Virus record (IMG/VR): IMGVR_UViG_3300045988_121635
Length of the DNA: 64,000 bases
Source of the DNA: a virus
Direction: 5' to 3' (one strand)
A model generated the notes under the pieces. That model worked only from the letters and a program-made list of their open reading frames with translations, had not been told where the DNA came from and ran no database searches. Numbering within the stretch: position 1 is the stretch's first letter; the number at the start of each line of letters is the position of its first letter. Positions 2,956 through 50,697 of the stretch are shown here, in pieces. The position numbers were made by a program, and so were the translations under genes.

Positions 2956-3130
2956 TGCGAAAGACGCCAATTTCTTATGGCGTCAAATTGGTAGGATTGA
3001 TGGGGTGATAGAAACTCTGAACCGTACCGAAGGAGAGATGCCGGAAATTATAGCCGGAGTACTAAAAAGAATAAGAGACGATATAGATAAGTTTGTAGAT
3101 AATAAAACGAAAGATTATGAGAATATATAA
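2939..3130 (+). CDS. hypothetical protein
   Basis: ORF 63 aa. Confidence 0.35.
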   Translation: MMGEFNAKDANFLWRQIGRIDGVIETLNRTEGEMPEIIAGVLKRIRDDIDKFVDNKTKDYENI

Positions 3131-3347
3131 AAATGATATTATAAAGGCGTCAGCGATAAGCACCGGCGCAGACAGAGGTGTGTTACTGTGTTCAATAACA
3201 GATTCGGGATTCACGTCTATAGCGGGCGTAATATCGGCTGTTAAGGATAAGTTACCAGGCAAAGATCATAAGAAGATGATTTTTGAAATACGGAATGATG
3301 GAAGAAACGAATATGGCAGATATAATAATTGTGGAGGAAAAATATGA
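3117..3347 (+). CDS. hypothetical protein
   Basis: ORF 76 aa. Confidence 0.35.
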   Translation: MRIYKNDIIKASAISTGADRGVLLCSITDSGFTSIAGVISAVKDKLPGKDHKKMIFEIRNDGRNEYGRYNNCGGKI

Positions 3348-3556
3348 AATACAGAGGTCTGTTGCTCCCTATGATATTAGCTGCAATGTGCGGAGATGAT
3401 GCCTTTGTGCTAAATACTAAAAGGGGAAAAGGAATGCAATCTACATATAGAAGAGAAAAGATTGTCAGAACAGAAAAAGAATTTGATATTAATGGCACTA
3501 AAGTAATGGCATACTCAAGAAAGGATGCCATTAAAAGATTAAAACATAAGAAGTAG
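3329..3556 (+). CDS. hypothetical protein
   Basis: ORF 75 aa. Confidence 0.35.
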   Translation: MWRKNMKYRGLLLPMILAAMCGDDAFVLNTKRGKGMQSTYRREKIVRTEKEFDINGTKVMAYSRKDAIKRLKHKK

Positions 3557-3603
3557 AAAACGGATTTTTATGTTAATGTTAGTTTTTTCATTTTTATTGA
3601 AAG

Positions 3604-3641
3604 GAGCGCCGGCCTGTGAAGGTATGCGCTCTTTGTATTTA
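3604..3641 (+). terminator. intrinsic terminator: GAGCGC-(CGGCC-TGTGA-AGGTAT)-GCGCTC hairpin with GNRA-like GTGA loop + TTTGTATTTAT
   Basis: 6-bp GC stem + U-rich tail read directly. Confidence 0.55.
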
Positions 3642-3651
3642 TATAATGCTT

Positions 3652-3770
3652 GACATACTCCCATCGCTAAAGCAAACGGGATTCTTGGATACAAACGTAC
3701 GGAACCCCCGGTTTTACAATCGTTGGAATCACCCGCACTTTCCAACTCGGAAATGCCCTTCCGAGGTCGC
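3652..3770 (-). mobile_element. orphan copy of IS200/IS605-family right end / TnpB-omegaRNA scaffold (no tnpB); ~85-90% identical to 12182-12300 and retains a decayed TnpB C-terminal coding remnant (RKGISELES...)
   Basis: TTGACATACTCCCATCGCTAAAGCAAA(C/T)GGGATTCTTGGATACAAACG... aligned by eye with the 3' end of the tnpB element at 12182; translation of minus strand gives RKGISELESAGDSND vs TnpB RKGISELESKSNSSDSN. Confidence 0.75.
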
Positions 3771-3856
3771 AAGACAGGGCAAATATAATGTTTAATTATC
3801 ATCTGACACATAAATGGGATCAGTATTACCATTAAATAACATAAAACAATAATAAT

Positions 3857-4111
3857 ATGACAGATAATAACATAGACGTGAATATCGTACCTGTAAAGAA
3901 TGGCGCGAAACGTGTTGTGGTATCATATTACCATTATTCACGCAAGGACAAAAATCACATGAGTTCCCAAACGGATTACGTGTGGGAAACAAAGAATGAA
4001 GAAATGTTTAAATACTTTGAGGCCAGGAGGACAAAAGTATTTTATAGTCAGATTCGTGCCATGTGTAGATTCTATGGCAAGAAAAATGTACGTAAATACA
4101 AAAAGCTATGA
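3857..4111 (+). CDS. hypothetical protein
   Basis: ORF 84 aa; ATGA overlap with next. Confidence 0.45.
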   Translation: MTDNNIDVNIVPVKNGAKRVVVSYYHYSRKDKNHMSSQTDYVWETKNEEMFKYFEARRTKVFYSQIRAMCRFYGKKNVRKYKKL

Positions 4112-4917
4112 TATTAAAAACAACAACCAACGAATTTTGTTTCATTAACGTAAGTTTTTATGAAACAATAGCAGACCCGCGTCATTTCTTTTCACAGGAA
4201 TATGATGAGATGCCGGAATATGAAGAAGAATCGGATTTTGATTTTGATTCTTATTGCAATAAGTTTGTTCCTTTTGTACAGGAATGGGCGAATGAGGTGG
4301 GTGAACGCCTTTATGAATATGGCGTGAATAACATAAAGGTAATATCGGTAGGACATCCAAAAGAGTACAATTATGATACTGATTGGATGGATGTAAGGAT
4401 AGAGTTTTGTGATGAATGGAGGCAAAAGATGTTATCTAACATTGGTAAGATTGTTAATGATGATAAATGCAAGAAGTATGCGGAGGCTAATTATCGGTCG
4501 GTACCAGGATACATCTTTTTAGGGCCTGAAGATTTAAAGGAATTTGAAAAGAAAATAATAGAAAGAAAGTCGGATTCTGGATATGATGTAACAATATTAT
4601 TAAACATGTATCTAACTTTGGCTTTTGTAAAAGAATTTGGATTTAAAGCCGGAGAAGCATGGAGTGAAATAACAGAATATGCTTACGGATGTTTGTCGTA
4701 TTCTGATTTTGCAACAACAGAGATGCTTATACCAGAAGGTTCGGAGCATTTATTCAAAGACATTTACACGGCAAAGGCCGACGAATTATATCATCATGTC
4801 CTGGATAAATTCGGATGGGCGTGGCGTGATCCGAAATATAAGTCAGAAACAGAATTATGCGCAATGTTAAAATGGGCAAAAGAAAAAGGCTTGACCATTG
4901 AAGAGTTAAGTATTTAA
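4108..4917 (+). CDS. hypothetical protein (269 aa, acidic N-terminus)
   Basis: long ORF, coupled start. Confidence 0.6.
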   Translation: MILKTTTNEFCFINVSFYETIADPRHFFSQEYDEMPEYEEESDFDFDSYCNKFVPFVQEWANEVGERLYEYGVNNIKVISVGHPKEYNYDTDWMDVRIEFCDEWRQKMLSNIGKIVNDDKCKKYAEANYRSVPGYIFLGPEDLKEFEKKIIERKSDSGYDVTILLNMYLTLAFVKEFGFKAGEAWSEITEYAYGCLSYSDFATTEMLIPEGSEHLFKDIYTAKADELYHHVLDKFGWAWRDPKYKSETELCAMLKWAKEKGLTIEELSI

Positions 4918-4944
4918 TTGTTAAACATAAGGCAGTAGTGGTGC

Positions 4945-5229
4945 GTGAGTATAGGTGCTGCCGTTAAAATATTTTATAAGATGAAAAAAGAAGAGATTCA
5001 AACTATTTTATACACAATCAAAGAAGGAGACAGTATTAAGATCAAAGTACAAGACAAAAGTGAAGAGATAAGACTGCGGGATCATGTAAGAAGAGTACAG
5101 AAATACGGATACAGGTTTTGTTTGTCTCATTTACATGATGGAATTTTCTATCTGGAGAAGTTGAAAGAAGGGGACAAGGATAAATACTATAGAGTAATAA
5201 ACAGAGGAAATGGAAAGACCGGAGTATAA
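4945..5229 (+). CDS. hypothetical protein
   Basis: ORF 94 aa. Confidence 0.4.
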   Translation: MSIGAAVKIFYKMKKEEIQTILYTIKEGDSIKIKVQDKSEEIRLRDHVRRVQKYGYRFCLSHLHDGIFYLEKLKEGDKDKYYRVINRGNGKTGV

Positions 5230-5503
5230 TAAGCTACGCAAAATGGTTAAGACTACTCCAGGTCTGATAGTGGACGAGGTGCAAAACATGATGCGTGTAT
5301 CGCTATACGATAATGGGGAACTTAAGAAGGTGGTAGTAGTAATGAAATGCGATTCTTTTTTACAGTCAAAAAGTAACATAGAAAAGATAATGTTATTATC
5401 ATCTTCTATAGAAGATAGAAAAAACAAAGAAAAAAATAAAACAAAATCAGAAAATGAACAGAATAACAAAAATAAGAGAAGAAATAGGAGGAAAACAGGT
5501 TGA
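5210..5503 (+). CDS. hypothetical protein with K/N-rich C-terminus
   Basis: ORF 97 aa. Confidence 0.35.
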   Translation: MERPEYNKLRKMVKTTPGLIVDEVQNMMRVSLYDNGELKKVVVVMKCDSFLQSKSNIEKIMLLSSSIEDRKNKEKNKTKSENEQNNKNKRRNRRKTG

Positions 5504-5837
5504 TTTGACCTTTTACGGGCGCTTTTGCAGCCTTATCGAAGGTGATAGGAAGATAATACTAAGGGCGATAAAAAACGGTCGTAAAAAAGGCGTAATCGGA
5601 GCTATTCAGTCTGGGAGACATGATAGAATTTGGACCACATGGTCTATTGCTTTTGATGATCTGAAGGTAGGGGATACGGTAGAGTTCAGTACATCTGGAA
5701 AATACAATCCCGGATTTCATGCTACGGAAAAGTATGTAGGGTGTGTAGAATGGATAAAAGGATCGGAATGTGCGATAAAAACAGGTAAGGGGATGGCAGT
5801 AGTATTAATTAAACACATAGAAAGGGTAGTAAAATAA
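5454..5837 (+). CDS. hypothetical protein
   Basis: ORF 127 aa. Confidence 0.45.
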   Translation: MNRITKIREEIGGKQVDLTFYGRFCSLIEGDRKIILRAIKNGRKKGVIGAIQSGRHDRIWTTWSIAFDDLKVGDTVEFSTSGKYNPGFHATEKYVGCVEWIKGSECAIKTGKGMAVVLIKHIERVVK

Positions 5838-6118
5838 TGGATTTAAGGATGTTTATAGACCTATTTCAGGAGATTGAGGTAGAAAACTTGTTTAAAGCGT
5901 TAGATTTATGTATGGAATATGTAAGATTAGATTTACATGTGTTTAATGTAGGAGCTCATGTAACGTGTTCATACAGCAATGATCTTGAATCTCTTTCACA
6001 GGCAGAAGGTTGTAATGTGAATATGATAATAGAGGTACCCTACTTATTCGAAGCATTCATGGAATATGCTTCACCGGAAATGAAGTTGTATTATGAAAAA
6101 CTAACAGAGATAGTATAA
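5837..6118 (+). CDS. hypothetical protein
   Basis: ORF 93 aa. Confidence 0.45.
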   Translation: MDLRMFIDLFQEIEVENLFKALDLCMEYVRLDLHVFNVGAHVTCSYSNDLESLSQAEGCNVNMIIEVPYLFEAFMEYASPEMKLYYEKLTEIV

Positions 6119-6119
6119 T

Positions 6120-6593
6120 ATGAAAGAAGAAGTAGAACGGATAAAGAAGTTGGTAGGCATAGATCATAACAGATGGGAGCAACCTTGTACATGTGATAAA
6201 TGTAAAAACATGTGTAAAGTTCCTTGTATTGGTACGCCAAAAGACATAGAGGCTATCATAGATGCCGGATACGCTGACAGGTTAAAAGAAACAATGTGGA
6301 TGGTAGGGTATCTTGCAGTGAAAGAAAAACCAATAGCGATGATCCAGCCAACAGAGAAAGACGGGTGGTGCGCATTCCGCCAGCCGGGCGGTCTCTGCGA
6401 GCTGCATGACCTCGGACTAAAGCCGACTGAAGGAGTTCTGGCTTCTTGTAAGGTGGTTGAAGAAGACGATATTCCGACATACGAAACATCCGTACTTAGA
6501 GCAGTAGCTCACGAGTGGGTTAAGGTGGAGAACTTTGGAAATGTAATGAAGGTCGTTTTTAAATTTTTGCATGAAAATGAACGTAGAAAATAA
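6120..6593 (+). CDS. hypothetical Cys-rich protein (CTCDKCKNMCKVPC)
   Basis: ORF 157 aa. Confidence 0.5.
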   Translation: MKEEVERIKKLVGIDHNRWEQPCTCDKCKNMCKVPCIGTPKDIEAIIDAGYADRLKETMWMVGYLAVKEKPIAMIQPTEKDGWCAFRQPGGLCELHDLGLKPTEGVLASCKVVEEDDIPTYETSVLRAVAHEWVKVENFGNVMKVVFKFLHENERRK

Positions 6594-13852: not shown

Positions 13853-14914
13853 ATGAACAATTCAATGGTCGCTCACTTGTGGGCTCATGAACAAGAAGAA
13901 TCAGCATCAGGGAGCAATTTCTTCTTTGAAGGTACAAGTATTTATTCTTATGGGCATCACTTTGAAGTCGGGAGAATAGTAAAAAACAAACAAGGGAAGA
14001 AAGCATACCTGATAAATGAAGATTATTATTCTGCTACCACGAGCAAACATCAATGCTATGTTCGTAATGCGATACCAACTTGGGCAATGGTTTTCAGTGT
14101 AGGGGATAATATATCGGATACTGGTAATATGAGGTTTGTTGCCAGCAAACTGGAATCAATTAAGAAGTCTATTGAAAAATACAAAAGAGCTAAAACAGAA
14201 TTATCTTATACAGATATTTGGGGCGCTTTTGGGAATATGATGGATTACATTCAGTTCTTTAACATGGGGACTGCTAAGAGTATCCTTAAAAAGAGTGCTA
14301 ATGATTGGCTTGGAACCAATCATGAATTATCCAAGAGCGGAGATAGTATCAAGCGTAAGCACGTACATGAATTAAAACGCATCTTTCAAATTTTATTAGA
14401 TCATCAAGGATTAAAAGTGTTAGGGACCGTAAATGTGATTGTTGATGAAGTTTGCGGGGAAGGTACATGGATTAAGTATTCAGAAAGATCTGAAAGATGG
14501 AGAAAGGGTGAGGAAGAAAGAGAAAGAATAAAATTAGAGAGATTAAGAAAGGAAGAAGAAGCCCGTTACAAGGATTTTGATGAAAAACTGGAAGAGTGGA
14601 AGTCAGGAGAAATCAATTTCTTGAATACACCTTTCTATATTCCTGGTGAAAAACCTAACGCCTGGATTCGTATAAAAGGAAATATTATTGAGACAAGTAA
14701 ACAGATAAAGATTGGAATAGCAGAAGCCAGAAAACTGTGGCGGGCTGTGTCGGCAATGCACCGGGGCGCCGAGTTTCGGCACGGTCTGGTGGAGGACATC
14801 ACCGGTCACCAGTGGAGTCTAAATCGGTACGAAAACGATTTGCTAACCGCTGGATGTCATAGGATAGCATATAACGAAATGGAGAGAATAGCAAAACAAC
14901 TGGGATGGGTGTAA
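13853..14914 (+). CDS. hypothetical protein with charged coiled-coil segment (EERERIKLERLRKEEEARYKD)
   Basis: ORF 353 aa. Confidence 0.6.
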   Translation: MNNSMVAHLWAHEQEESASGSNFFFEGTSIYSYGHHFEVGRIVKNKQGKKAYLINEDYYSATTSKHQCYVRNAIPTWAMVFSVGDNISDTGNMRFVASKLESIKKSIEKYKRAKTELSYTDIWGAFGNMMDYIQFFNMGTAKSILKKSANDWLGTNHELSKSGDSIKRKHVHELKRIFQILLDHQGLKVLGTVNVIVDEVCGEGTWIKYSERSERWRKGEEERERIKLERLRKEEEARYKDFDEKLEEWKSGEINFLNTPFYIPGEKPNAWIRIKGNIIETSKQIKIGIAEARKLWRAVSAMHRGAEFRHGLVEDITGHQWSLNRYENDLLTAGCHRIAYNEMERIAKQLGWV

Positions 14915-15699
14915 GTAGTCCATCTTATTTTATTAATCACATAATTAAAAACAAGAAAAATATGAAAAATCTAATTATTGTTCCGTTTGATTTAAATACG
15001 GCGAGAAAAATTAAAAGCGAAGAAATAGAAGGTTCGGTATTAATTGATAATATTGAGATAGAATTTGTATATGAGTCGAAAGACCGCGCCGGTCCTTATA
15101 ATTTACTTTTTGTAAGAAAAGATGGATATGGAATAAGTGCTATATATGCCAACACGGAAGGTTGTACTATTGGCGGCACCACTCTGGAATTGAAAGTAGA
15201 GGCTGGGGCGTATTTCAAGAAAGGAGATGTATTAACAAGCACTAATGGATATCAATTCATATATGATGGAATTATTACCAAAGGGATAATGGGATGTATA
15301 TGCGGAATGGCAACATTTGGAGATATTGGGTTTGATTACAAATTATGGACTCATGTGTATGACGAAGATAAAAAACGGCATGTAAGAAAGGCTATAGAAG
15401 AAGAGAAGAAATTTTTAGCAGAAAAGATTATAAAAGTCGAAGACAGTAGAAAAATAGATATAATAAAACGATATTTAAGTGAATATGAGTATCTATTAGA
15501 TGAGATGCCGAAACGTGACTTCAAACCATTTGAACGAGTGCTGGTAAGAAGAACTAACCAAGAGAGGTGGAAATTGCATCTATTTTCCAGAGAATCAGTA
15601 GGAGATAATAAATACGAATGCTTAGGAGGGGTAGGATTTAGTCAGTGTATCCCATACGAAGGGAACGAACATCTTTTAGGAACCAATAAAAACAAATAA
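14905..15699 (+). CDS. hypothetical protein; N-terminal domain paralogous to 15704..16054 N-terminus, C-terminal ~60 aa paralogous to 16150..16434 C-terminus (FKPFxxVLVR...EGNEHLLGTNKN)
   Basis: alignment by eye of translated ORFs. Confidence 0.6.
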   Translation: MGVSSPSYFINHIIKNKKNMKNLIIVPFDLNTARKIKSEEIEGSVLIDNIEIEFVYESKDRAGPYNLLFVRKDGYGISAIYANTEGCTIGGTTLELKVEAGAYFKKGDVLTSTNGYQFIYDGIITKGIMGCICGMATFGDIGFDYKLWTHVYDEDKKRHVRKAIEEEKKFLAEKIIKVEDSRKIDIIKRYLSEYEYLLDEMPKRDFKPFERVLVRRTNQERWKLHLFSRESVGDNKYECLGGVGFSQCIPYEGNEHLLGTNKNK

Positions 15700-15703
15700 G
15701 ATT

Positions 15704-16054
15704 ATGGAATATAAAATGGTAACAATCCCGTTTGATTTAGAAACGGCGAAAAAAATAAACATAGGGGAAATAGCAGGTCGTATTGTGACAGAGAAAGGAC
15801 AAAATAGAGCAGAAATCGTATATGAAGACAATTCGTCAAGTTGTCCGTTATTGGTTGTAATTCATTCGATTTCTGTATCGGCAGACTGGTTTTCTGCTAC
15901 AGGAAAAGCACTTAGCAGCGCAAATCGACTCCTTCTTGAAGTTCCAGAATATATTACATTTAAAGATGGAGAGGTGTTAAGTAATAAAGATGGTAGCTAT
16001 ATCTTTATTTTAAATACACATGGGAAATATTTAACGTCTTTTATGCCTCTTTAA
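15704..16054 (+). CDS. hypothetical protein, paralog of N-terminal domain of 14905..15699 (IVPFDLNTARKI / VTIPFDLETAKKI)
   Basis: by-eye alignment. Confidence 0.5.
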   Translation: MEYKMVTIPFDLETAKKINIGEIAGRIVTEKGQNRAEIVYEDNSSSCPLLVVIHSISVSADWFSATGKALSSANRLLLEVPEYITFKDGEVLSNKDGSYIFILNTHGKYLTSFMPL

Positions 16055-16149
16055 ATCAAAAAGGTATTCTTAAAATAGAAGATGGTTTATCTGCTTGGGA
16101 AAATCAGATAGAAAAATACAGATTTGCCACTGAGTCCGAAAGACAAAAG

Positions 16150-16434
16150 TTGGTTGACGCATTAAAGGCAAGCAAAGAACCTGAAGCTAAAGAGTATCTG
16201 AAACGCTTCTTCGGGATTGAAGAAAAACCGAAATATGAGTTTAAGCCGTTTGATAAAGTGCTGGTAAGAAAAGAAGGAAATAAAAAATGGAATATCAGTT
16301 TGTTTGCAAGGGAAATTGTGGACGATTATAATGGATTGCCTTATAAGTACGAATGTTCCAATGGAACATTATGGGATTATTGTATTCATTTTGAGGGTAA
16401 CGAACATCTTTTAGGAACTAATAAAAATGGATAA
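16150..16434 (+). CDS. hypothetical protein, paralog of C-terminal domain of 14905..15699
   Basis: shared FKPFDKVLVRK...HFEGNEHLLGTNKNG. Confidence 0.5.
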   Translation: MVDALKASKEPEAKEYLKRFFGIEEKPKYEFKPFDKVLVRKEGNKKWNISLFAREIVDDYNGLPYKYECSNGTLWDYCIHFEGNEHLLGTNKNG

Positions 16435-16840: not shown

Positions 16841-17095
16841 ATGTATGAGAATATTTTAAGCAACATGTTAGGATGTCAGACATATTGTATATCAGACAGT
16901 CCTTCGAATAGATACTGTCTTATTGGACCTATTGAGTGCAATGAGAAGTTAATAGAAGTGTTTAAGAAGGGGATAATGGTAAAACTCAAATACGTGGAAA
17001 AACGAGTCCTGGATACATTTACGGACAACGGAACCAACCTGAGCAATTACACTCACTGTATTATTGTGAAGCGGAATTTTTATCTCGCTTGGTAA
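16841..17095 (+). CDS. hypothetical protein
   Basis: ORF 84 aa. Confidence 0.4.
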   Translation: MYENILSNMLGCQTYCISDSPSNRYCLIGPIECNEKLIEVFKKGIMVKLKYVEKRVLDTFTDNGTNLSNYTHCIIVKRNFYLAW

Positions 17096-17113: not shown

Positions 17114-17776
17114 ATGAATAATTTTGTAATAGATACTCCAGATAATTTCTGGCAAATAAGATGGCTTGACAAGTATATGGAAGGCCACAAAGGATTCATA
17201 GCTGGTGGATGTTTTAAGAATATTCTTTCCGGAGAAAAAGTAAAAGACATTGATATTTTCTTTGAAAGCGAAAGCAATTTTCAGGAAGCTATTGATTTGT
17301 TCAATGATGAAAAACATCAGAAAGAAGGATGGAAATTTAAGTACAGAAATGAGAAGGTATGTGCGTTCCAGAAAGAGGGAGAAAAGGTATGGATAGAGTT
17401 CATAGAGTCAGAGTTTGGAAAGCCAGAAGAGATTCTTAGGAGCTTCGATTTTACTGTGGCAAAAATGGCCTACTACAAGGAGCCCAAATACGAAGAAAAA
17501 GAAGATGATTATTTTCCATTCTCATCTGCAAGTATAGTAGCATACGAATATAAGCTACTCTATCATGAGAAATTCTTCGAACATCTTCATATGAAGAGGC
17601 TGGTAATTGACGAAAATATTCCTTTTCCGGTAAGCACATGGGAGCGCTCATATCGGTATAAAGGATATGGTTACAATATGTGCCGGGAGACAAAGAAAAA
17701 ACTTCTACAGGCTCTTAAAGGTGTAAATGTAGAGGAGGAAGATGTATCTTTGTACACTACTGGAGGATGGGATTAA
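17114..17776 (+). CDS. putative nucleotidyltransferase of Pol-beta superfamily; motif GGCFKNILSGEKVKDIDIFF resembles the poly(A) polymerase/CCA-adding enzyme head motif GGxVRDxLLGxxxKDxDxxT
   Basis: motif recognised by eye; 220 aa is short for a full CCA enzyme. Confidence 0.45.
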   Translation: MNNFVIDTPDNFWQIRWLDKYMEGHKGFIAGGCFKNILSGEKVKDIDIFFESESNFQEAIDLFNDEKHQKEGWKFKYRNEKVCAFQKEGEKVWIEFIESEFGKPEEILRSFDFTVAKMAYYKEPKYEEKEDDYFPFSSASIVAYEYKLLYHEKFFEHLHMKRLVIDENIPFPVSTWERSYRYKGYGYNMCRETKKKLLQALKGVNVEEEDVSLYTTGGWD

Positions 17777-17794
17777 CTTATAAAACATAGATAT

Positions 17795-18457
17795 ATGAAT
17801 ACATCATTTGAGAAATCTAAAAACAGTACAGATGAATGGTACACACCTAAAGAAATTATAGACGCTTTAGGGGAATTTGATTTAGATCCATGTGCGCCTA
17901 TGCGTCCGTTATGGAGGACAGCCAGGGTTATGTATAACAAAGAGCAAGATGGATTAAAACAAAAATGGGAAGGAAGGGTATGGTTAAACCCACCTTATTC
18001 AAGACCGACTATAGAGCATTTTATTACTCGTATGGTAGAGCACAATAATGGAATAGCTCTTCTTTTTAATCGTCTTGACAATAAAATGTTTCAGAATGTT
18101 GTATTTCCGAAAGCAAAAGGTATATTGTTCATGAAAGGAAGGATAAAATTCCACAGAGAAGATGGAACAATAGGTGAAAGTCCAGGATGTGGGTCTATTC
18201 TGGTTGCATTCGGTGAAGAGAATGCGGAAACATTAAGATCTTCTAATATTGAAGGAAGATATATACAGGTCAATCAAGAACCGTGTAACACCCATGTAGA
18301 TTGGGAACAACGTAGATACGAGATGGCAAAAACCATGCTTCCGATCACATCCGTATCAGGACGTGGACCTCACGGTGAATTAATATTGGAAGCGTGTGAT
18401 AAGGCGGCTGAATTAGCTGTAATATATGCGGATGCTTTAATTAAAGAACTGAAATGA
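17795..18457 (+). CDS. phage Dam-family DNA N6-adenine methyltransferase (EWYTPKEIIDAL...DPCA...NPPYS)
   Basis: DPCA and NPPY motifs typical of phage T1/N15-type Dam MTases. Confidence 0.75.
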   Translation: MNTSFEKSKNSTDEWYTPKEIIDALGEFDLDPCAPMRPLWRTARVMYNKEQDGLKQKWEGRVWLNPPYSRPTIEHFITRMVEHNNGIALLFNRLDNKMFQNVVFPKAKGILFMKGRIKFHREDGTIGESPGCGSILVAFGEENAETLRSSNIEGRYIQVNQEPCNTHVDWEQRRYEMAKTMLPITSVSGRGPHGELILEACDKAAELAVIYADALIKELK

Positions 18458-18611
18458 AATCAACAGTATATGCTCATCTTGAGAATGATTATAGATTTTA
18501 TAGACTTCCTCTATTTAGAGCTACGGCTGTAAAATACGGATGGAATAATCCTATAGGGGAAGATAGCGGGAGAGAGAAAAAATATAATTCACAGTATTAA
18601 GTAGATATATT

Positions 18612-19451
18612 ATGAGCACAAGTAAAGAATACAAGGCAGTAAGAAATTGCATACTAAATGAACTTCACCTTACCAAAGAAGATATAATCAAAAACATAGA
18701 ACCATTATTGGAAAAGCTTGTAAAAAGGTGCATGCATAATACATACGGAGGAAACAATCAGATAGAAAATTGGATCAGATGTATGGTAAATGACGAACTT
18801 AAACAAAAAGAAGGCTATGGATTTGTAAGGAAAATATGTGGGGAGGTTATAAAAGATCATGTGTTGAATGAGTTGAACATAATTGTAAGACCCAAAAATG
18901 AAAAATGCGTATGTAAAAATAGAGTACCATCAAGAAAAGATGGTTTGTATCTAATCTACGGAAACGGACACGCTGAGCCGTTTACTGGAGAGAATTTCAA
19001 AAAGAATGTGCGTTATATCGGATTAAAACACAAAGACGTATCGTTTGCTATCTCACTGGCGGAGAATGATAGTGTACGGTTGCTTGACGATGATAGCCGT
19101 GAAAAATCCGGAAGTGAGACATATTACGAACGTAAATGTGATGCGCTGTTTGACATTGACGGACGCGGCAATACGGAACGCCTTGTGGCCAGAAATCCAA
19201 AGTTGAAAAATTTGCTGAAAGATGGCGAGTATATACCATCTCTTGGTCAATTAAATTTAATGGCCCATTATATGGACGAACTAAACGAAGCATTCGCTTA
19301 TGTTTCGGCATCTCCCCTCTCCTCGACGTGGTATAGGTCCAGTACCGAGAGCAGCCCGAGCGTCGCGTGGTACGTGGACTTCTCCATTGGTAGCGCGTAC
19401 TACAGTGACAAGTACAACAGTAGCAGGGTTCGGGCGGTAATTGATTTTTAA
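18612..19451 (+). CDS. hypothetical protein; 3' ~150 nt unusually GC-rich (Ser/Tyr/Trp-rich tail)
   Basis: ORF 279 aa. Confidence 0.5.
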   Translation: MSTSKEYKAVRNCILNELHLTKEDIIKNIEPLLEKLVKRCMHNTYGGNNQIENWIRCMVNDELKQKEGYGFVRKICGEVIKDHVLNELNIIVRPKNEKCVCKNRVPSRKDGLYLIYGNGHAEPFTGENFKKNVRYIGLKHKDVSFAISLAENDSVRLLDDDSREKSGSETYYERKCDALFDIDGRGNTERLVARNPKLKNLLKDGEYIPSLGQLNLMAHYMDELNEAFAYVSASPLSSTWYRSSTESSPSVAWYVDFSIGSAYYSDKYNSSRVRAVIDF

Positions 19452-19462
19452 AAAGGATTACA

Positions 19463-20260
19463 ATGATAACATCGGTAAAAATAAAAGACAACACAAAAAC
19501 TCCTTTTGAATATGCTTCTGACATAGAAGCATTTGAAAATGGCAGAGAATTTATTTTCAAGCCAGGAGTGAACGTAATTATAGGTAAAAACGGTAGTGGA
19601 AAATCAACCTTGCTTAACATCATATCAATGTATGCGTTATGTGAGAAATCCATGTGCTCTGAAATACCGATCGAGGCACTGGATTTTCCACCTATATTTG
19701 ATGATGATGACAAGGTTCTTGATGGGATTGACATATCATCCGATTATGCAGGGAAAGTATTCCGTTTATTGCCATCGGCGGAGATGAATCGAGATAGTGT
19801 ATTAAAAAACATCAGCAACTTAGATTTGTATGTGAATAATATTCGAAGATCTTATGGAGAGAAAGTGGTGTTATCATTGGAATCACTTTTCAATTTAATG
19901 TTCGGTCAAAAGGATTATACATTTCCAATACAAGATCTTGTAGAATACAAGAAAAAATCAAATGCGTTTTGGATTAAAAGAATTGATAACCTGTTGAAGT
20001 ATTATGAAAGAAACCGCATAACATTAACAAAAAGCAGTTTTGAATACACGGTTCTCATGGATGAGCCAGATAGGAATCTTGACATTGACAACATAATGCA
20101 AATTTATAATGTATTGTCATTCCATAAACCACAAACACAAATTATAGCCATAGTACACAATCCGGCATTGATTTACAAGTTAAGCAAATTAGATTGTGTG
20201 AATTTCATAGAGATGACAGAAGGATATCTTAGTAAAACTTGTATATTTATGTCCAATTAA
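19463..20260 (+). CDS. P-loop ATPase (Walker A GKNGSGKST, Walker B/D-loop LMDEPDRNLD), ABC/AAA_21-like
   Basis: motifs read directly; family assignment tentative. Confidence 0.6.
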   Translation: MITSVKIKDNTKTPFEYASDIEAFENGREFIFKPGVNVIIGKNGSGKSTLLNIISMYALCEKSMCSEIPIEALDFPPIFDDDDKVLDGIDISSDYAGKVFRLLPSAEMNRDSVLKNISNLDLYVNNIRRSYGEKVVLSLESLFNLMFGQKDYTFPIQDLVEYKKKSNAFWIKRIDNLLKYYERNRITLTKSSFEYTVLMDEPDRNLDIDNIMQIYNVLSFHKPQTQIIAIVHNPALIYKLSKLDCVNFIEMTEGYLSKTCIFMSN

Positions 20261-23259: not shown

Positions 23260-23419
23260 AATAAGAATAGAAGCTGACGATGAAACTATCTTTTATGCTC
23301 ACATACGAAGAGAGAGTTATGGCAAGGATATAGCTATCGCAGTGAAAGATAGAGATAAAGATGAAGTGGAAACAGTGTTACATTGTATTAAAGAAGAATT
23401 GATTAGAGGAAGATCATGA
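23234..23419 (+). CDS. hypothetical protein
   Basis: ORF 61 aa; ATGA overlap. Confidence 0.35.
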   Translation: MTDMRKLYKIRIEADDETIFYAHIRRESYGKDIAIAVKDRDKDEVETVLHCIKEELIRGRS

Positions 23420-24732
23420 AAGAGAAAATAAAAATATTGACAGATTTAGGGTTTGCGCCTATGGTAGAAGGAGAAGGAAATACGTTGTTTAGAATGAACG
23501 ATGTTGTGATGTCGGTGTCAGATCCTAACCAAACACCAGAGCAGTTGAAGAAGGAGGTTATGTCTTTAATAAAGAACAGAGACATAGCGGAAAGAGGTGG
23601 ACAGGTTCCAGTAGTTGAAGAGCCGGCGCCTGAGCCAGAGCAGGCCCAGAAGGAGGAACCGGAAGCTCCGGCGGAGGAAGCCGCTCCTAACCCTGGAGAA
23701 GAGGATTCGAATCCGTTTACAGAAAATCAGGAAACGTTAGAGCCGTTTTATATCTGTGATGAGTTAAAGAAGATCGAGACTCCCAAATTCGTAAGATTGA
23801 CATTAGACGGTAATCGTTTTTATGTAAGAAAGATGGACGATGGGACAGCCAAGATATATGCTTCGGTAACAACCATGATCAGAGACGGATTCGTAGATGA
23901 CAAGACGGCTCTTCAAGAATGGAGACAGGAGATGAGGATGATTGGTCGCAATCCGGAAGAAGTATCAGAATATGATGCAGATAAAGGAACGATCATGCAC
24001 TACCTATACGGATTGTACTTGACGGGTAGAGATATGGTCTTAAATCGAAGTTTTATAGTTAAGACAGTGCAAGAAGGCAAGCTTAAAATATCAAAAAAGA
24101 ATCTTGACAAATTCTTTGGTAGCATAGATGATCTTGACGATATGATTGTCAGAGTTATGAAGTTTGCTAAATTTTGTTCAGAGTATAAGGTTAAGCCGAT
24201 GATGATTGAAAGAATATTGTCATTAGAAGATTATTTGGTAGCTACGCCGATAGATGCGATGGTTAAAATGACATTCAAATACAAAGAAGAAGGTTATTTT
24301 GGAGCCGTGTATCAAAGGGCTACGGGGCAGTTCAAAAAAGGAGATCCGAAGAAGGAAGTGAGAGAAGTGGAGAAAGAAGAGATTGTTATCTTAGATTTTA
24401 AATCAGGTGACATACGAAATGAACATGCTTTTCAATTGGAGGCTGAAAGGAGAATGGTTAAAAACTGGTACGGAATTGATGCACGTATTATGAATTTTTC
24501 TCCAAAAAGCACGAACAGTAAAGGTTATACGCTAAAGGAATGGTCTGATAAAAATGCTGCTATGGAGAAGGCAGACTGTGTATTCCAACAAGGGATGTTG
24601 AATCATATCAGAAAAGATAAGAGGTTTAAAGTGAGAAAAGGAGTGCTGAATATCAATAAGCCGTACAATGAAGAGGATCATATTGTCGTATATGATATTG
24701 CTGAGGAAATGTCTAAAAGATTCGTAATATGA
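23416..24732 (+). CDS. hypothetical protein with Pro/Glu/Ala-rich linker and a possible PD-(D/E)xK-like nuclease core (EIVILDFKSGD)
   Basis: ORF 438 aa; nuclease assignment weak. Confidence 0.5.
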   Translation: MKEKIKILTDLGFAPMVEGEGNTLFRMNDVVMSVSDPNQTPEQLKKEVMSLIKNRDIAERGGQVPVVEEPAPEPEQAQKEEPEAPAEEAAPNPGEEDSNPFTENQETLEPFYICDELKKIETPKFVRLTLDGNRFYVRKMDDGTAKIYASVTTMIRDGFVDDKTALQEWRQEMRMIGRNPEEVSEYDADKGTIMHYLYGLYLTGRDMVLNRSFIVKTVQEGKLKISKKNLDKFFGSIDDLDDMIVRVMKFAKFCSEYKVKPMMIERILSLEDYLVATPIDAMVKMTFKYKEEGYFGAVYQRATGQFKKGDPKKEVREVEKEEIVILDFKSGDIRNEHAFQLEAERRMVKNWYGIDARIMNFSPKSTNSKGYTLKEWSDKNAAMEKADCVFQQGMLNHIRKDKRFKVRKGVLNINKPYNEEDHIVVYDIAEEMSKRFVI

Positions 24733-41426: not shown

Positions 41427-41915
41427 ATGAAAAATAATTTAAAACTCGTATGTCCAAAATGTGGCACCCCTCACCAGCCTCATTCTCCGCACACGATGGA
41501 TGCAGATGGATTTGAAAGGAGTGAGATAAGAACTGTCATGGAAGACAGGGGATGGTGCTACGAATGCTCTTTTTGGCAAAACTTGTACGACAAGCACAAA
41601 GACGATCCTGGATGGGTTAGGATAGACGGTGTAAGCTGGGTGCTTAAGCCTATGGTGGAAAACGTACCGAGCGGATGGAACAGCCTTGGATGTGGTGGAA
41701 GAAAAATGTATATCAATATCGAAGGGAAAGGCGTTGTTACATCAAATAACTGCTGGTGTCAAGGTGATGTTTCGGACGCATTCAAGGATCTGATGCCTGA
41801 TAATGCTACTTGGGCTACGAAGGAGGAATTTGACAAAGCTCCTGTAGTAGGACATATCATAGAAGGTATTGGTTTAGTTTTCACAGATAGGGAAGGTCAT
41901 GAAGTTAATGCTTAG
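41427..41915 (+). CDS. hypothetical Cys/His-rich protein
   Basis: ORF 162 aa. Confidence 0.5.
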   Translation: MKNNLKLVCPKCGTPHQPHSPHTMDADGFERSEIRTVMEDRGWCYECSFWQNLYDKHKDDPGWVRIDGVSWVLKPMVENVPSGWNSLGCGGRKMYINIEGKGVVTSNNCWCQGDVSDAFKDLMPDNATWATKEEFDKAPVVGHIIEGIGLVFTDREGHEVNA

Positions 41916-41962
41916 AAACTTATTTCATGTTCTGCTTATATAAGAAAAGATGGTAACTACAA

Positions 41963-42001
41963 CAATCCCCAACCATACAATAGGCGTACGGTTGGGGATT
42001 G
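41963..42001. terminator. bidirectional terminator at convergence of + and - gene blocks: CAATCCCCAACC-(15 nt)-GGTTGGGGATTG, 12-bp stem
   Basis: perfect 12-bp inverted repeat between convergent genes. Confidence 0.7.
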
Positions 42002-42004
42002 TTG

Positions 42005-46500: not shown

Positions 46501-49500
46501 CGCCATTTTGAGATACGAAGCCTTGTTATTTGATTCGGTGCGCGCTGACTGTTCCGATTCTATATCATTCCAAAACCGATCGTTGAATGACAGGTGACCA
46601 CCCAACATAAGCGTTCTCAATGCAGCTTCCCCTCCTGATTCGCTCTGAATCGCTCTCAATTTTTGCAAAAACGATTCTGATACGGCATTAGTAACATTAT
46701 TTGATTCCTTTCTCCAAACTTCATTTATAGCTTGTATTTCTTTGGCCATCTTAAGTTGGTCGCCGGTTTTTTCCACTCTCCTGGTTCCTACATATATGTA
46801 TTCTGAAGCTGCTTCTTTACGTTGTTTACGAAGCAGTCCTTCTTCTTCGTAATTGCTGCTTTTAAAATAGGCAACTTCATCAAAATTACCACCGCTATCA
46901 ATAAAAGGCTGCCTCAGTATCCGTTTTTGCCTGGATAGAGCATTAAGGTATTCTTTGGTTGTTTGAGAAACTGGATGCCCTAATTCTTCTTCAGCCTTTT
47001 TGTATATGGATTCCATTCTTGTGGCATAACTTTCACTAAATTCCAGTTCCGAATTTTCAGCATCCCACTTTTCCATCTGTTCCGTATAGATCTTTTCCTG
47101 CTCGATGGTAAAAATATCGGTATTAACCCTATCAGACGATGGTTTGAATTTAGCGTTTTCAGTAACCGTATTTCCATCCTTGTCAACTACTTCTCTTTTA
47201 AATACGTAATTACGGTTATTGTCAACCACATCACCAATTTCTTCTTCTGATATCTCTATGTTCATGGCAGTCGCAAACGCTCGCATCTGCGCCAGCTTCT
47301 TATTACGATCGTATTTAGCCATATCAAGAGCACTACGAAGGTAATTAGAAGTTTTGCCGTCTACTTTCTGAAGCAGTTTTTCAAATTCAGATTTGTTAAA
47401 ACCATGCTTTTTCGCATATGCCAGGAAATCGGATATGGCGGGCTGGGCATTCACCATCGCATTGTAATTGTCTTTGGCAATCATAGCTCCAAGAGCGTTA
47501 TTGAACGGACTGGAAGAATGCTCTAATATACCAAACCACCTACTTATCCAAGAAACATCGTGTTGAACCTTGTCGAAAAATTCTTTTACTCTCTTTACCT
47601 TATCTGCCGGCACATGAAGTTCGTTCATTAACTTATCAAGCAACGTACTTTCATCAAGGTCTTGTACTGATTTAATATCAGACTGAATACCATTGATGTC
47701 GGCAATGACGGTGTTGATCCTATTTGTATAATCCTGCTTTTCACGTTCATCAAATTCGGTACTTCTGTTACGGATATATCCTCGAAGATCGTTCATGATC
47801 GGAAGAACCTGATTGTTGATAATATCTACGTTCTTTCGATCATTGGTGTTGAAGTGAAGCTTGCCGTCTTTGGTATCACCATGAAGGATGGTGTTCACCA
47901 CATTGCTTAAGTATCTGACCTGAGCTTCGGCTGTGGAGATCATGCTGTTCATGGCAGCCGCCATCTCATTCTTGTCTATTTCGGTCTCTACCTTATTTAT
48001 CTTATCTTCTATGGTCTTAAGCTGCGCAAGGGTCATAGACGTAGTTACAGCCCTATCAGAGCTTATCTGACGTAAGTCTCTTAATGTTTTTCTTAGTGAT
48101 CTGATCTTAGACTCAAGAAACTTGTTCTTGTTCATAGAAGAAAGGGAGTATAATGTAAAGTCATTATCCTTTAACAGAGAGGTGTCAAATCCTTTATCTA
48201 TGTCAGTAATGGCAAGATCACGAATGTTTTTAATAACGTTATTCAAATCTTGTCTTTGGGTTGATAAAGCTGATTTAAGCCAGCTTACGATTCCAGAGAA
48301 AAGCTGCCGGACGCGCCCCAGGAAGGAGGTGGGCTCTACCGGCGCCTGTGCTGTGCCGGCCTGCATCTCCCTGGCGAGGATCTTTCCAAGAATTTCTCTC
48401 CTAACAGCATTATCAAGCTCAGCTCCTTCATACGCTTTACCGTATGTATTATAATACTGACCTGCATACTGGTTCCACTCTTCCGTACCTTCTACATCTT
48501 GCAGAACAGCCTCAACAGCATTCTGATCTCTGTATGCCTCTACAAGAAAGTGGGCTGTTTCTTCTACTAAATCAGATAAAGTAGCATCTTCACCAACTGC
48601 TATTACGTTATTAGCAATATCCGCCAATGCCTTAGCAGAAGGTTCGTGCCCGTATTTGGTTTGGTACTTCTCTATATAGTCGGTCATACCTATGACACTA
48701 ACGCCAAGCGTTTTCAGTATCTCGACAATAGAATTTCGTTGGTCACGTTCCTGCCTGCTATAATCTGATACGATCTTAGCTTTAGTATCAGCATAAAGAT
48801 CGTTATCTTCTAATATGAATGAAACTACAAGCGCATCAAAATGATCGTACTTGGCGTCCAATTCATTGTATCTTCCTGACTTAAGATCGTTCTTTATCTG
48901 TTCCCTACTAATCCTTTCCGTTCCTCCGGTGGCGAGTCTCATAGTTACCTTACTGTTATCCAACGAGCTTATGGTTATCATACCTTGGTCGTTCATGGAA
49001 ACATCGGAACCAAAATGATTACGGAGCTCGGTGTATGATAAGGCTGAATTGAAAAGTCTAATTTGTCCTGTATGACCTTCTCCTGTAAGATAATAGCTTC
49101 TTGTTTCAGGATCGAATATCTTAGATCCGGACAAAAGACCTTTCTTTATAAGGTAGTTAATTATACCACCTTTTGTTGATAAAGAAGTAGAAGCAGAAGC
49201 GGTCATGACCGGTATAAAAGATTTGGGATTATTAAGAACATACTTTCCAGCTTTGTAAGTAATGTCTGCCACGCCATCCACGGTAGATTCTTGAACGGTG
49301 CCTGATAAGAACCCTATTCTGATATCATTCCCGCCAGAGCGAAGAGCTTCTCCGTAATCTTCAAATAATTGACTACGATCGTTCATGAAAAACAAACGAG
49401 GCTCTCCAGTCTGATACGTTACACCCACAGGATTAGAATCTGTTTCTGGTAGCTCTTCTGGGCTAAATATCTTAAGACCGTCTTTTATAACCATATAATT

Positions 49501-50164: not shown

Positions 50165-50557
50165 TTATATGTAATGCATGTACCCATCTCGGTGTATAAA
50201 CCTTCCCGATTCAAAGCGCTCAATATCTTCAGGGCAAATAGGGCCCGAATCCTCTCTCCTGGCTTCAAACCAAAGCCCCGGCTTACGAAGTCGGCAAGTT
50301 ATGATATAATTGAAGCAATTGTGCGTAAAATGGAAAACAGATCCTACAGGGAAATACCTATCAGCTTGAAATACGATTCTTTTTCGTTTAGTATCAAACG
50401 TGATATCCCCTACTATCTTAGCCACGTAATAGCTTCTGCCATTTAACGTTTCATCTGTCTGCGGTATCCAATAATAACCTCTTGCCATGCCACAAATATA
50501 TAAAAAAAGTCGGACAAGACACATGCCCGACTTTATATTACTTTGATTCATTTTCAA
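50165..50557 (-). CDS. hypothetical protein
   Basis: ORF 130 aa. Confidence 0.45.
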   Translation of the reverse strand: MKMNQSNIKSGMCLVRLFLYICGMARGYYWIPQTDETLNGRSYYVAKIVGDITFDTKRKRIVFQADRYFPVGSVFHFTHNCFNYIITCRLRKPGLWFEARREDSGPICPEDIERFESGRFIHRDGYMHYI

Positions 50558-50697
50558 ACCGCTTTATAAGAGAAGCAATATCATCACCACAAATAAACAT
50601 CATTCGACGTTCTTCTTTTGGTTTATGAGACACTGGAATGGTTTTGTTTATCTTAATCTGATTCGCCAGACCTCTACCTAAACGAATATCAACTTTT

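Follow-up and report, generated by a model that had tools for sequence, protein, structure and literature searches.

A stand-alone phage nucleotidyltransferase homologous to the N-terminal domain of the Gabija inhibitor Gad2

The stretch of 64,000 nucleotides analysed here (hereafter, the window), which comes from the IMG/VR virus record IMGVR_UViG_3300045988_121635, encodes a Gad2-type (class II-like) stand-alone nucleotidyltransferase (NTase) of 220 amino acids, on the plus strand at positions 17114..17776. The open reading frame (ORF) runs from ATG to TAA exactly where an earlier note on this DNA had placed it, and its product (26.4 kDa, pI 5.25) contains, at residues 31–50 (17204..17263), the peptide GGCFKNILSGEKVKDIDIFF in which the note had recognized a GG...DxD signature. 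Judging by sequence comparison, the protein is a homolog of the whole N-terminal NTase domain of Gad2, an inhibitor of the Gabija defence system, and nothing more: at the sequence level it can be counted in the Gad2 family of Pfam, without the Gad2 architecture, that is, the stand-alone catalytic module of Gad2-type enzymes. The most likely reading, which can be held with moderate confidence, is that this is an active enzyme that probably functions in counter-defence. The short family to which it belongs is already catalogued, as PHROG 4400, and nothing in the results overturns expectations.

Gad2 (Gabija anti-defence 2) is a 400-amino-acid protein of Bacillus phage SPbetaL7, the deletion of which renders the phage fully sensitive to Gabija; co-expression of a 394-amino-acid homolog from Brevibacillus laterosporus abolishes Gabija defence, and an NTase domain has been predicted in Gad2 with AlphaFold (bioRxiv 10.1101/2023.05.01.538930). 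The supplement of the same study was the source of the verified Gad2 sequences used here. A February 2026 review lists the mechanism of Gad2 as not elucidated (PMC12904381).

In a collection of 5.8 billion proteins, the ORF has 1,132 homologs, and all 119 of the annotated ones among the matches listed, including 220-amino-acid proteins that are 96–98% identical to the ORF product, carry the precomputed assignment PF26128.2 (‘Gad2’). Direct comparison with the verified proteins gives the same result. BLASTP aligns residues 26–202 of the ORF product with residues 26–177 of the Brevibacillus Gad2 (E = 2e-11), hhalign detects Gad2 with a probability of 97.1% (E = 7e-11), and a hidden Markov model built from 89 diverse members of the short family scores 85.3 and 76.3 bits on the two Gad2 proteins, over profile positions 17–195 of 205. 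The ORF product matches PHROG 4400 along residues 1–218 (E = 3e-65) and PHROG 18122 at E = 1.4e-9, whereas verified Gad2 belongs to PHROG 18122 (E = 1e-92) and matches PHROG 4400 with its residues 18–208 (E = 5e-29). Of the 195 loci gathered, 192 have an NTase gene that is found with Gad2 as a tblastn query. The two proteins have in common the segments IAGG...DxD(I/V)(Y/F)F, FDFT(V/I) and F(F/L)xH...(R/K)xL and the helix (F/Y)PxxS...R...(K/R)Y...GY, both lack the EDxxR motif, and both are encoded by accessory genes of phages or prophages. Among the functions that the earlier note had put forward, anti-defence is the best supported one, given the PF26128 assignments of the homologs and the homology to the NTase domain of verified Gad2.

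The likeness ends with this domain. Gad2 proteins consist of 394–400 amino acids, compared with 220 for the ORF product, and a C-terminal domain of ~210 residues is found only in Gad2; the end of the ORF product (residue 220) is equivalent to Gad2 residue ~185–208. When the C-terminal halves of Gad2 were compared with the window by tblastn, nothing better than E = 1.7 was obtained, which rules out a split Gad2 with the C-terminal domain encoded elsewhere in the window. Across the 195 loci, the C-terminal domain occurs solely in one from Robertmurraya siralis (L195; NZ_SWLZ01000004.1, about 2998..6170), where it belongs to a separate, full-length Gad2 gene. This is also the single locus with both forms: a frameshifted short-form copy lies 18 nucleotides upstream of an intact Gad2 gene (3656..4855; 399 amino acids, 57% identical to the Bacillus subtilis Gad2, E = 2e-158), which is followed by an ORF of 133 amino acids and a DNA methyltransferase gene (5352..6170).

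A GG...DxD string taken alone could arise by chance, so the likeness to the PolA head that the earlier note had proposed was judged on the Pfam ranking, a structural model and structure matches, and these take it beyond a chance motif. PF01743, the family with which the note had associated the ORF, is indeed its best Pfam family (E = 0.019, profile positions 2–69 of 126), with a score of 15.7 bits that stays under the cut-off of 23 bits; it is the top Pfam family for 39 of the 89 diverse members of the short family (best E = 1.8e-5). Searches of PDB sequences with phmmer and with a profile returned nothing at E ≤ 10 for the ORF, and there was no match in NCBIfam or, at E ≤ 1, in PADLOC. The AlphaFold2 model built from the 89-sequence alignment (mean pLDDT 93.0, pTM 0.88) replaced an earlier one from 18 sequences, the C-terminus of which was poor (pLDDT 74.5) and which ranked the PDB matches in the same way. 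In a Foldseek search of the PDB with the 89-sequence model, the top 38 matches consist without exception of class II enzymes that add CCA, CC or A and of the Escherichia coli poly(A) polymerase (PAP). The best one is 4wc2_A (E = 2.1e-7); the top matches reach a TM score (TMq) of 0.58 over 200–233 columns, and the E. coli PAP I structures 3aqk, 3aql and 3aqm are among them (E = 4.6e-6, TMq 0.51). CD-NTases, Pol beta and other NTases appear at E of at least 0.16, and the putative NTase structures 4ok0 and 4hx0 at E of at least 0.1. The model thus predicts a fold that comprises the Pol-beta/class II ‘PolA-head’ catalytic domain followed by the first neck helices, the same arrangement as in the A-adding enzyme of A. 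aeolicus (4WC2/1VFG), the CCA-adding enzyme of T. maritima (3H39) and E. coli PAP (3AQM), and not that of an unrelated NTase clade such as the aminoglycoside NTases, to which the note had allowed that the protein might turn out to belong.

The predicted active site is conserved throughout the short family. G31, G32, D45, D47, D112, F155, R178 and Y182 are invariant in the 89 members, and K35, K/R44, F111, F113, P172, T175 and G186 are nearly so. Motif A, G31-G32-x12-D45-x-D47 (GGCFKNILSGEKVKDID; 17204..17254, plus strand, as are the other motifs), comprises the nucleoside triphosphate (NTP)-binding turn and the two metal-binding aspartates, and its counterpart in class II enzymes is GG-x11-13-DxD; its two glycines and two aspartates are present in 89 of 89 sequences, and K35 in 87. 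The segment GFIAGGCFKNILSGEKVKDIDIFF aligns well with the corresponding segments of E. coli Cca and PcnB; the hhalign comparisons with these single sequences (probabilities of 4% and 22%, respectively) served for the alignment of motifs only and not as statistics. E95 (17396..17398), in the strand formed by residues 93–101, is a candidate third catalytic carboxylate, and the position is acidic in all 89 members (E in 72, D in 17), from which a catalytic role may be inferred.

F111-D112-F113-T114 (17444..17455) is the counterpart of class II motif B (RRDFTIN) minus its two arginines, as position 110 is variable and position 111 is Phe. These four residues align with PcnB ‘...EEDAQRRDFTINSLYY’, and the same FDFT is found in verified Gad2; over a longer span, the family pattern FGxPEEILxxFDFT(I/V) aligns with PcnB FGSIEEDAQRRDFTIN, so that D112 corresponds to the motif B aspartate. 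D112 is present in 89 of the 89 members, and F111 and F113 in 88 each. Finally, the neck-like helix P172–Y187 (PVSTWERSYRYKGYGY; 17627..17674), of which residues 172–184 are helical in the 89-sequence model, sits where class II enzymes have motif D and their first neck helix. P172 (85 of 89), T175 (80), R178 (89), Y182 (89) and G186 (88) are conserved here, positions 167–171 are variable, and the ‘RYakyGy’ of this helix can be aligned, weakly, with ‘ARYAHLGF’ of Cca.

Variation within the phage species of the window points in the same direction. In 78 alleles of the gene (64 distinct), the ratio of nonsynonymous to synonymous polymorphism (pN/pS) is about 0.15 and all the family-conserved residues are kept. 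Together with the invariance of the active-site residues, this argues for a functional gene rather than a decaying fragment or a dead decoy: as far as can be read from the alleles, the gene is under purifying selection and its Pol-beta-type active site is intact.

The short family is large and essentially phage-borne. A profile search of 1.84 billion cluster representatives (50% identity clusters) yields 2,344 at E ≤ 1e-3, 619 at E ≤ 1e-10 and 185 at E ≤ 1e-30, and the 150 best are for the most part proteins of 190–225 amino acids that stand alone. By tblastn, the gene was found in 143 GenBank phage records, including 54 of Streptococcus thermophilus phages, 15 of Bacillus, 13 of Aeromonas, 12 of Vibrio, 8 of Maribacter, 6 of Bacteroides and 5 of Listeria phages; the product is nearly always named ‘hypothetical protein’, and two records use ‘polyA polymerase’ or ‘CCA tRNA nucleotidyltransferase’. 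Bacterial and archaeal genomes, sampled at one per species (185,579 species), contain 23 loci, mostly in Streptococcus and Bacillaceae prophages, the closest being a contig of a Bacteroidaceae metagenome-assembled genome with 78% identity. Among predicted viral structures in BFVD, the model matches the 220-amino-acid protein A0A385IK13 of Bacillus phage v_B-Bak10 with a TM score of 0.85, short-family members at E = 2e-25, longer phage proteins of 347–485 amino acids at 1e-10 to 1e-12, and the true viral tRNA nucleotidyltransferases at about 1e-6 only. PHROG 4400 includes, in addition to A0A385IK13, gp53 of Listeria phage P35, gp37 and gp34 of the S. thermophilus phages 9871 and STP1, respectively, and BF503P2_00041; the ORF product is 40–55% identical to these proteins over the full length, with no difference of substance. 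What sets the species of the window apart from the other PHROG 4400 phages is an in-frame ORF of 84 amino acids ahead of the NTase gene, with which it is fused in some strains.

Counter-defence is judged to be the likeliest role because the only characterized homolog has that role and because the locus is accessory and variable. Under this reading, the protein would be made early in infection as an accessory enzyme and would act by catalysis, not as a stoichiometric binder, to blunt a nuclease-type immunity of the host, be it Gabija or a different system that senses ends or belongs to the OLD family. D45 and D47, probably with E95, would bind Mg2+, the GG turn, K35 and D112 would hold the NTP, and the nucleotide would be transferred to an acceptor hydroxyl, most probably a 3'-OH at the end of a nucleic acid. 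This choice of acceptor follows by analogy, given that template-independent extension of nucleic acids at the 3'-OH is what all the structural relatives carry out, which would make the 3' end of a polynucleotide the likeliest substrate.

Several observations weigh against a role in counter-defence. The protein owes the name Gad2 to its N-terminal domain, and the C-terminal ~210 residues, absent from both the ORF and the window, may be what confers Gabija specificity. Position 95, acidic throughout the short form, is Gln in three full-length Gad2 proteins (IQLIH, LQMIH, IQTIH), the verified ones included, so that the chemistry of the two forms may differ. The short form is present in two S. thermophilus phages, STP1 and SW16, which are nevertheless the only two of four phages that were modestly restricted by Gabija (Kelleher et al., PMC11514479). 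Gabija protected against all tested S. thermophilus phages, Piorkowskivirus included, according to PMC12322248, and every sequenced member of Piorkowskivirus that was examined carries the NTase gene. Taken together, the streptococcal data make anti-Gabija activity of the short form in S. thermophilus phages doubtful, if only indirectly. Furthermore, in several lineages the gene is located among recombination and nucleotide-metabolism genes, where a role in DNA metabolism would fit equally well.

The latter role is the main rival to counter-defence, and the less probable of the two: the protein would be an accessory enzyme of DNA metabolism, a template-independent NTase acting on phage DNA ends or on recombination and replication intermediates, for example, by tailing or capping 3' ends, with any effect on defence being secondary. 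The gene is common in phages with genomes of 31–40 kb, within DNA-recombination modules, and in streptococcal phages of two genera, it lies between the SSAP/exonuclease (or DUF1351) genes and the SSB/RusA genes. The order is RecT, exonuclease, NTase, SSB, HNH, RusA in S. thermophilus phage 9871 and SSAP, hypothetical protein, NTase, SSB, RusA in STP1. A tally of neighbours in 80 more diverse viral loci, gathered in a scan with a distant lead sequence, found DUF1351 upstream in 36 of 78 cases, followed by DUF3799/PD-(D/E)XK (6), VRR_NUC/Hjc (5), ERF (4) and HNH (4), and SSB downstream in 40 of 75, followed by a replisome organiser (4). In Lactobacillales phages, it is DUF1351 that fills the exonuclease/Gam slot next to SSAP recombinases (PMC8093625). 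Elsewhere, the gene lies near genes for dUTPase and dCMP hydroxymethylases (Bacteroides fragilis phage BF503P2 and a metagenomic contig) or, in locus L010, follows an SMC_N ATPase, a gene without a named function and a DUF3799 exonuclease; the window itself encodes an SMC_N-type ATPase two genes downstream of the NTase and an exonuclease 5.6 kb downstream.

These counts are less telling than they appear. Adjacency to SSB is limited to one of the 11 NTase clusters delineated at 70% identity (five of 18 at 90%), so that the counts are pseudo-replicated and reflect a lineage-specific synteny within one clade, and the family-wide NTase–SSB synteny that the raw numbers seemed to indicate had to be downgraded. 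In other lineages, the gene is surrounded by ORFans, as in Listeria phage P35, Bacillus cereus phage pW4 and Thomasclavelia phage TR-TP2. Moreover, phages keep anti-defence genes in early DNA-metabolism regions as well, the gene is accessory, being found in about a quarter of S. thermophilus phages (54 records versus 191 genomes in PMC12322248), and the sole experimentally characterized homolog is an anti-defence protein.

The two roles could converge if the enzyme modified the DNA ends that are sensed by defences. The genome ends of phages are where Gabija acts, and it also monitors the activity of RecBCD (PMC12904381). A more specific and rather speculative proposal, to which only a low probability is attached, is that the short form is the Gad2 family's catalytic module working on its own, as a template-independent terminal transferase that would act on DNA 3' ends by tailing or capping the linear ends and recombination intermediates detected by Gabija or by systems monitoring RecBCD, hence its position beside the SSAP, exonuclease and SSB genes.

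It is improbable that the protein is a minimal RNA 3'-end polymerase, adding poly(A) or poly(N) tails to host or phage RNAs and altering their stability. Such a function is suggested by the presence of the PAP I structures among the top matches, by the alignment of motifs A and B with PcnB and by the annotation of the ortholog in phage csAssE-Sib (WOZ57379.1) as ‘polyA polymerase’. This label, however, is an automated name based on fold or profile. The controls Cca (412 amino acids) and PcnB (465 amino acids), compared with which the ORF product is roughly half-length, as the earlier note had correctly observed, score 69.8 and 141.9 bits with PF01743, and both contain the neck/RNA-binding domain PF12627, with PF12626 in addition in PcnB. 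PF12627 is detected in none of the 89 short-family members, PF01743 stays under its gathering score for the ORF, the arginines of the ‘RRD’ in motif B are not conserved, and body and C-terminal domains of the PF12626 type are not encoded in 220 amino acids.

Less probable still is the function that the earlier note had favoured, CCA addition or tRNA repair by a minimal enzyme, which would mend tRNA 3' ends damaged by host anticodon or acceptor nucleases or mature phage tRNA-like transcripts, and for canonical CCA addition the evidence amounts to a near refutation. It is true that the nearest solved structures, 4wc2_A first, are A-adding and CCA-adding enzymes and that a family member bears the name ‘CCA tRNA nucleotidyltransferase’ in one GenBank record. 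A link between RNA ends and Gad2 is also conceivable, because an OLD nuclease related to GajA cleaves tRNA (Govande 2025, as cited in PMC12904381). The protein, however, ends about 50 residues past the head domain, and its length leaves no room for the body and tail domains with which tRNA is measured. The EDxxR of motif D in class II enzymes is the template for the selection of CTP and ATP. It reads GEDPLR in Cca and REDPVR in PcnB; in its place, the short family has D166-x5-P172-x-S-T175-(F/W)-x-R178-x-x-(R/K)-Y182, and no conserved acidic-acidic-x-x-Arg can be found in any register of the alignment of the 89 members. With neither body and tail nor motif D, the NTase cannot measure tRNA or select C, C and A in the manner of the CCA enzymes. 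By profile threshold, by motif D and by the neck, body and tail domains, the ORF product is not a CCA enzyme or a PAP, although it would work in the manner of a class II template-independent NTase.

The substrates that the note had envisaged for such an enzyme, CCA-less tRNA-like elements, did not materialize either. Neither tRNA nor tmRNA is detected by ARAGORN in the 64 kb of the window, and Rfam yields nothing at gathering thresholds and no tRNA-like match at E ≤ 1. Three sub-threshold Rfam matches (rli38, S15 leader and L20 leader; E = 0.05–0.1) at 41859..42004 (plus strand), 48748..48849 (minus strand) and 50496..50623 (minus strand), respectively, are most likely due to chance. The structural distances (about 1e-6 for true viral tRNA nucleotidyltransferases compared with 2e-25 for short-family members) and the abundance of the family in 31–40-kb phages, within recombination modules, do not favour tRNA maturation either.

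The least probable alternative, and a very unlikely one, is that the protein acts through a nucleotide signal, as a CD-NTase-like enzyme making an inhibitory or decoy nucleotide, or that it is itself a decoy, devoid of catalytic activity. CD-NTases do belong to the Pol-beta superfamily, and GajA is regulated by nucleotide levels (as summarized in PMC11514479), so that it might in principle be silenced by a nucleotide product, but the best CD-NTase structures in the Foldseek search match at E = 0.16–0.5 with a probability of about 0.2 and a TMq of about 0.2, PADLOC gives no match, and a dead decoy is hard to reconcile with the invariant catalytic residues and the pN/pS of 0.15. The second-messenger function that the note had listed finds no backing in these values. 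The minimal NTases of the MNT, KNTase, aminoglycoside and DUF types produce sporadic sub-threshold matches only (NTP_transf_5 in six of the 89 members, best E = 0.02; DUF2204 in two).

The window is about 91–92% identical to the 151-kb human-gut phage csAssE-Sib (OR575929.1), and the NTase gene is one of a series of small genes, for the most part ORFans, that run in the same direction; downstream of this series are an exonuclease-like gene (23416..24732, phrog_298), the one at the distance of 5.6 kb mentioned above, and replication genes. Immediately downstream of the NTase gene, a plus-strand ORF at 17795..18457 encodes a Dam-type N6-adenine DNA methyltransferase (PF05869, E = 8.8e-15, 55.2 bits versus a cut-off of 28.1; phrog_111, 1.1e-41; orphan methyltransferase in PADLOC). 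The adjacency to Dam described in the earlier note is therefore real for the window, but it does not extend to the species: in 80 conspecific IMG/VR loci (95–99% identity), the position 3' of the NTase is taken by Dam in 31, by an unrelated gene of 145 amino acids in 41, and by neither in eight. A 48-amino-acid ORF at 18454..18600 is the 3' remnant of the 145-amino-acid gene. The methyltransferase gene is thus a swapped-in cassette rather than a functional partner of the NTase, and a conserved NTase–Dam operon can be ruled out.

The upstream neighbour is more constant. The 84-amino-acid ORF at 16841..17095 (plus strand), in frame with the NTase, is found in 77 of the 80 conspecific loci and matches nothing in Pfam or PHROG. 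The codon that separates the two ORFs (17093..17095, plus strand), TAA in the window, is polymorphic between stop and sense: it is TAA in 67 of the loci, TGA in 12 and ACA in one, and CAA (Gln) in locus L002. A sense codon in place of the stop explains the 311-amino-acid fusion proteins (P0001–P0007). Recoding of stop codons could be ruled out as the source of these fusions, given that CAA is genuinely present in the strains with the fusion; reading through TAG or TGA adds hardly anything to the long ORFs, and reading through TAA, the commonest stop, lengthens them trivially. The existence of the fusion in a minority of strains hints at a functional link between the 84-amino-acid product and the NTase.

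Other genes in the vicinity can be described briefly. The ATPase encoded two genes downstream of the NTase (19463..20260, 265 amino acids; AAA_21, SMC_N, AAA_23) is of the ABC/SMC_N type; in PADLOC its best matches are the ATPase subunits of defence systems, mad3 at 2.5e-17 followed by AriA, GajA, PtuA and LmuB, and a nuclease domain is lacking. Possible roles are those of a recombination ATPase, a decoy or a component of a phage-borne defence system. A similar SMC_N ATPase is encoded two genes upstream of the NTase in L010. The ORF at 18612..19451 encodes a 279-amino-acid protein with a weak match to the Lcl C-terminal domain (PF07603, E = 1.2e-4, below threshold), which belongs to phrog_4245 and is annotated as DUF3988 domain-containing in csAssE-Sib. 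Farther upstream, 14905..15699 and 15704..16434 are tandem paralogs with a common PFDL.TA.KI at the N-terminus and EGNEHLLGTNKN at the C-terminus; the second one is split into ORFs of 116 and 94 amino acids in the window and is a contiguous gene of 393 amino acids in csAssE-Sib. In the database protein P0019, the start of the 116-amino-acid ORF is joined directly to the NTase, so that a deletion variant exists.

For the annotation of phage genomes, these results mean that the labels ‘polyA polymerase’, ‘CCA tRNA nucleotidyltransferase’ and ‘Gad2’ are each over-interpretations when applied to the short family, and its genes should not be annotated automatically as ‘anti-Gabija’. The window contains no system for the maturation of phage tRNAs, and its Dam gene lies next to the NTase gene only incidentally. 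Gad2 is one of the few inhibitors that are thought to act enzymatically (PMC12904381), and its catalytic domain turns out to be widespread as a stand-alone protein of ~200 amino acids in phages of Bacteroides, Streptococcus, Bacillus, Listeria, Maribacter, Vibrio and Aeromonas, which offers a smaller and more tractable biochemical entry to the Gad2 mechanism. If the short form does tail DNA 3' ends, an abundant 26-kDa protein that is easy to purify would reveal how Gad2-type proteins defeat Gabija, and the C-terminal domain of the long Gad2 would be a mere targeting add-on.

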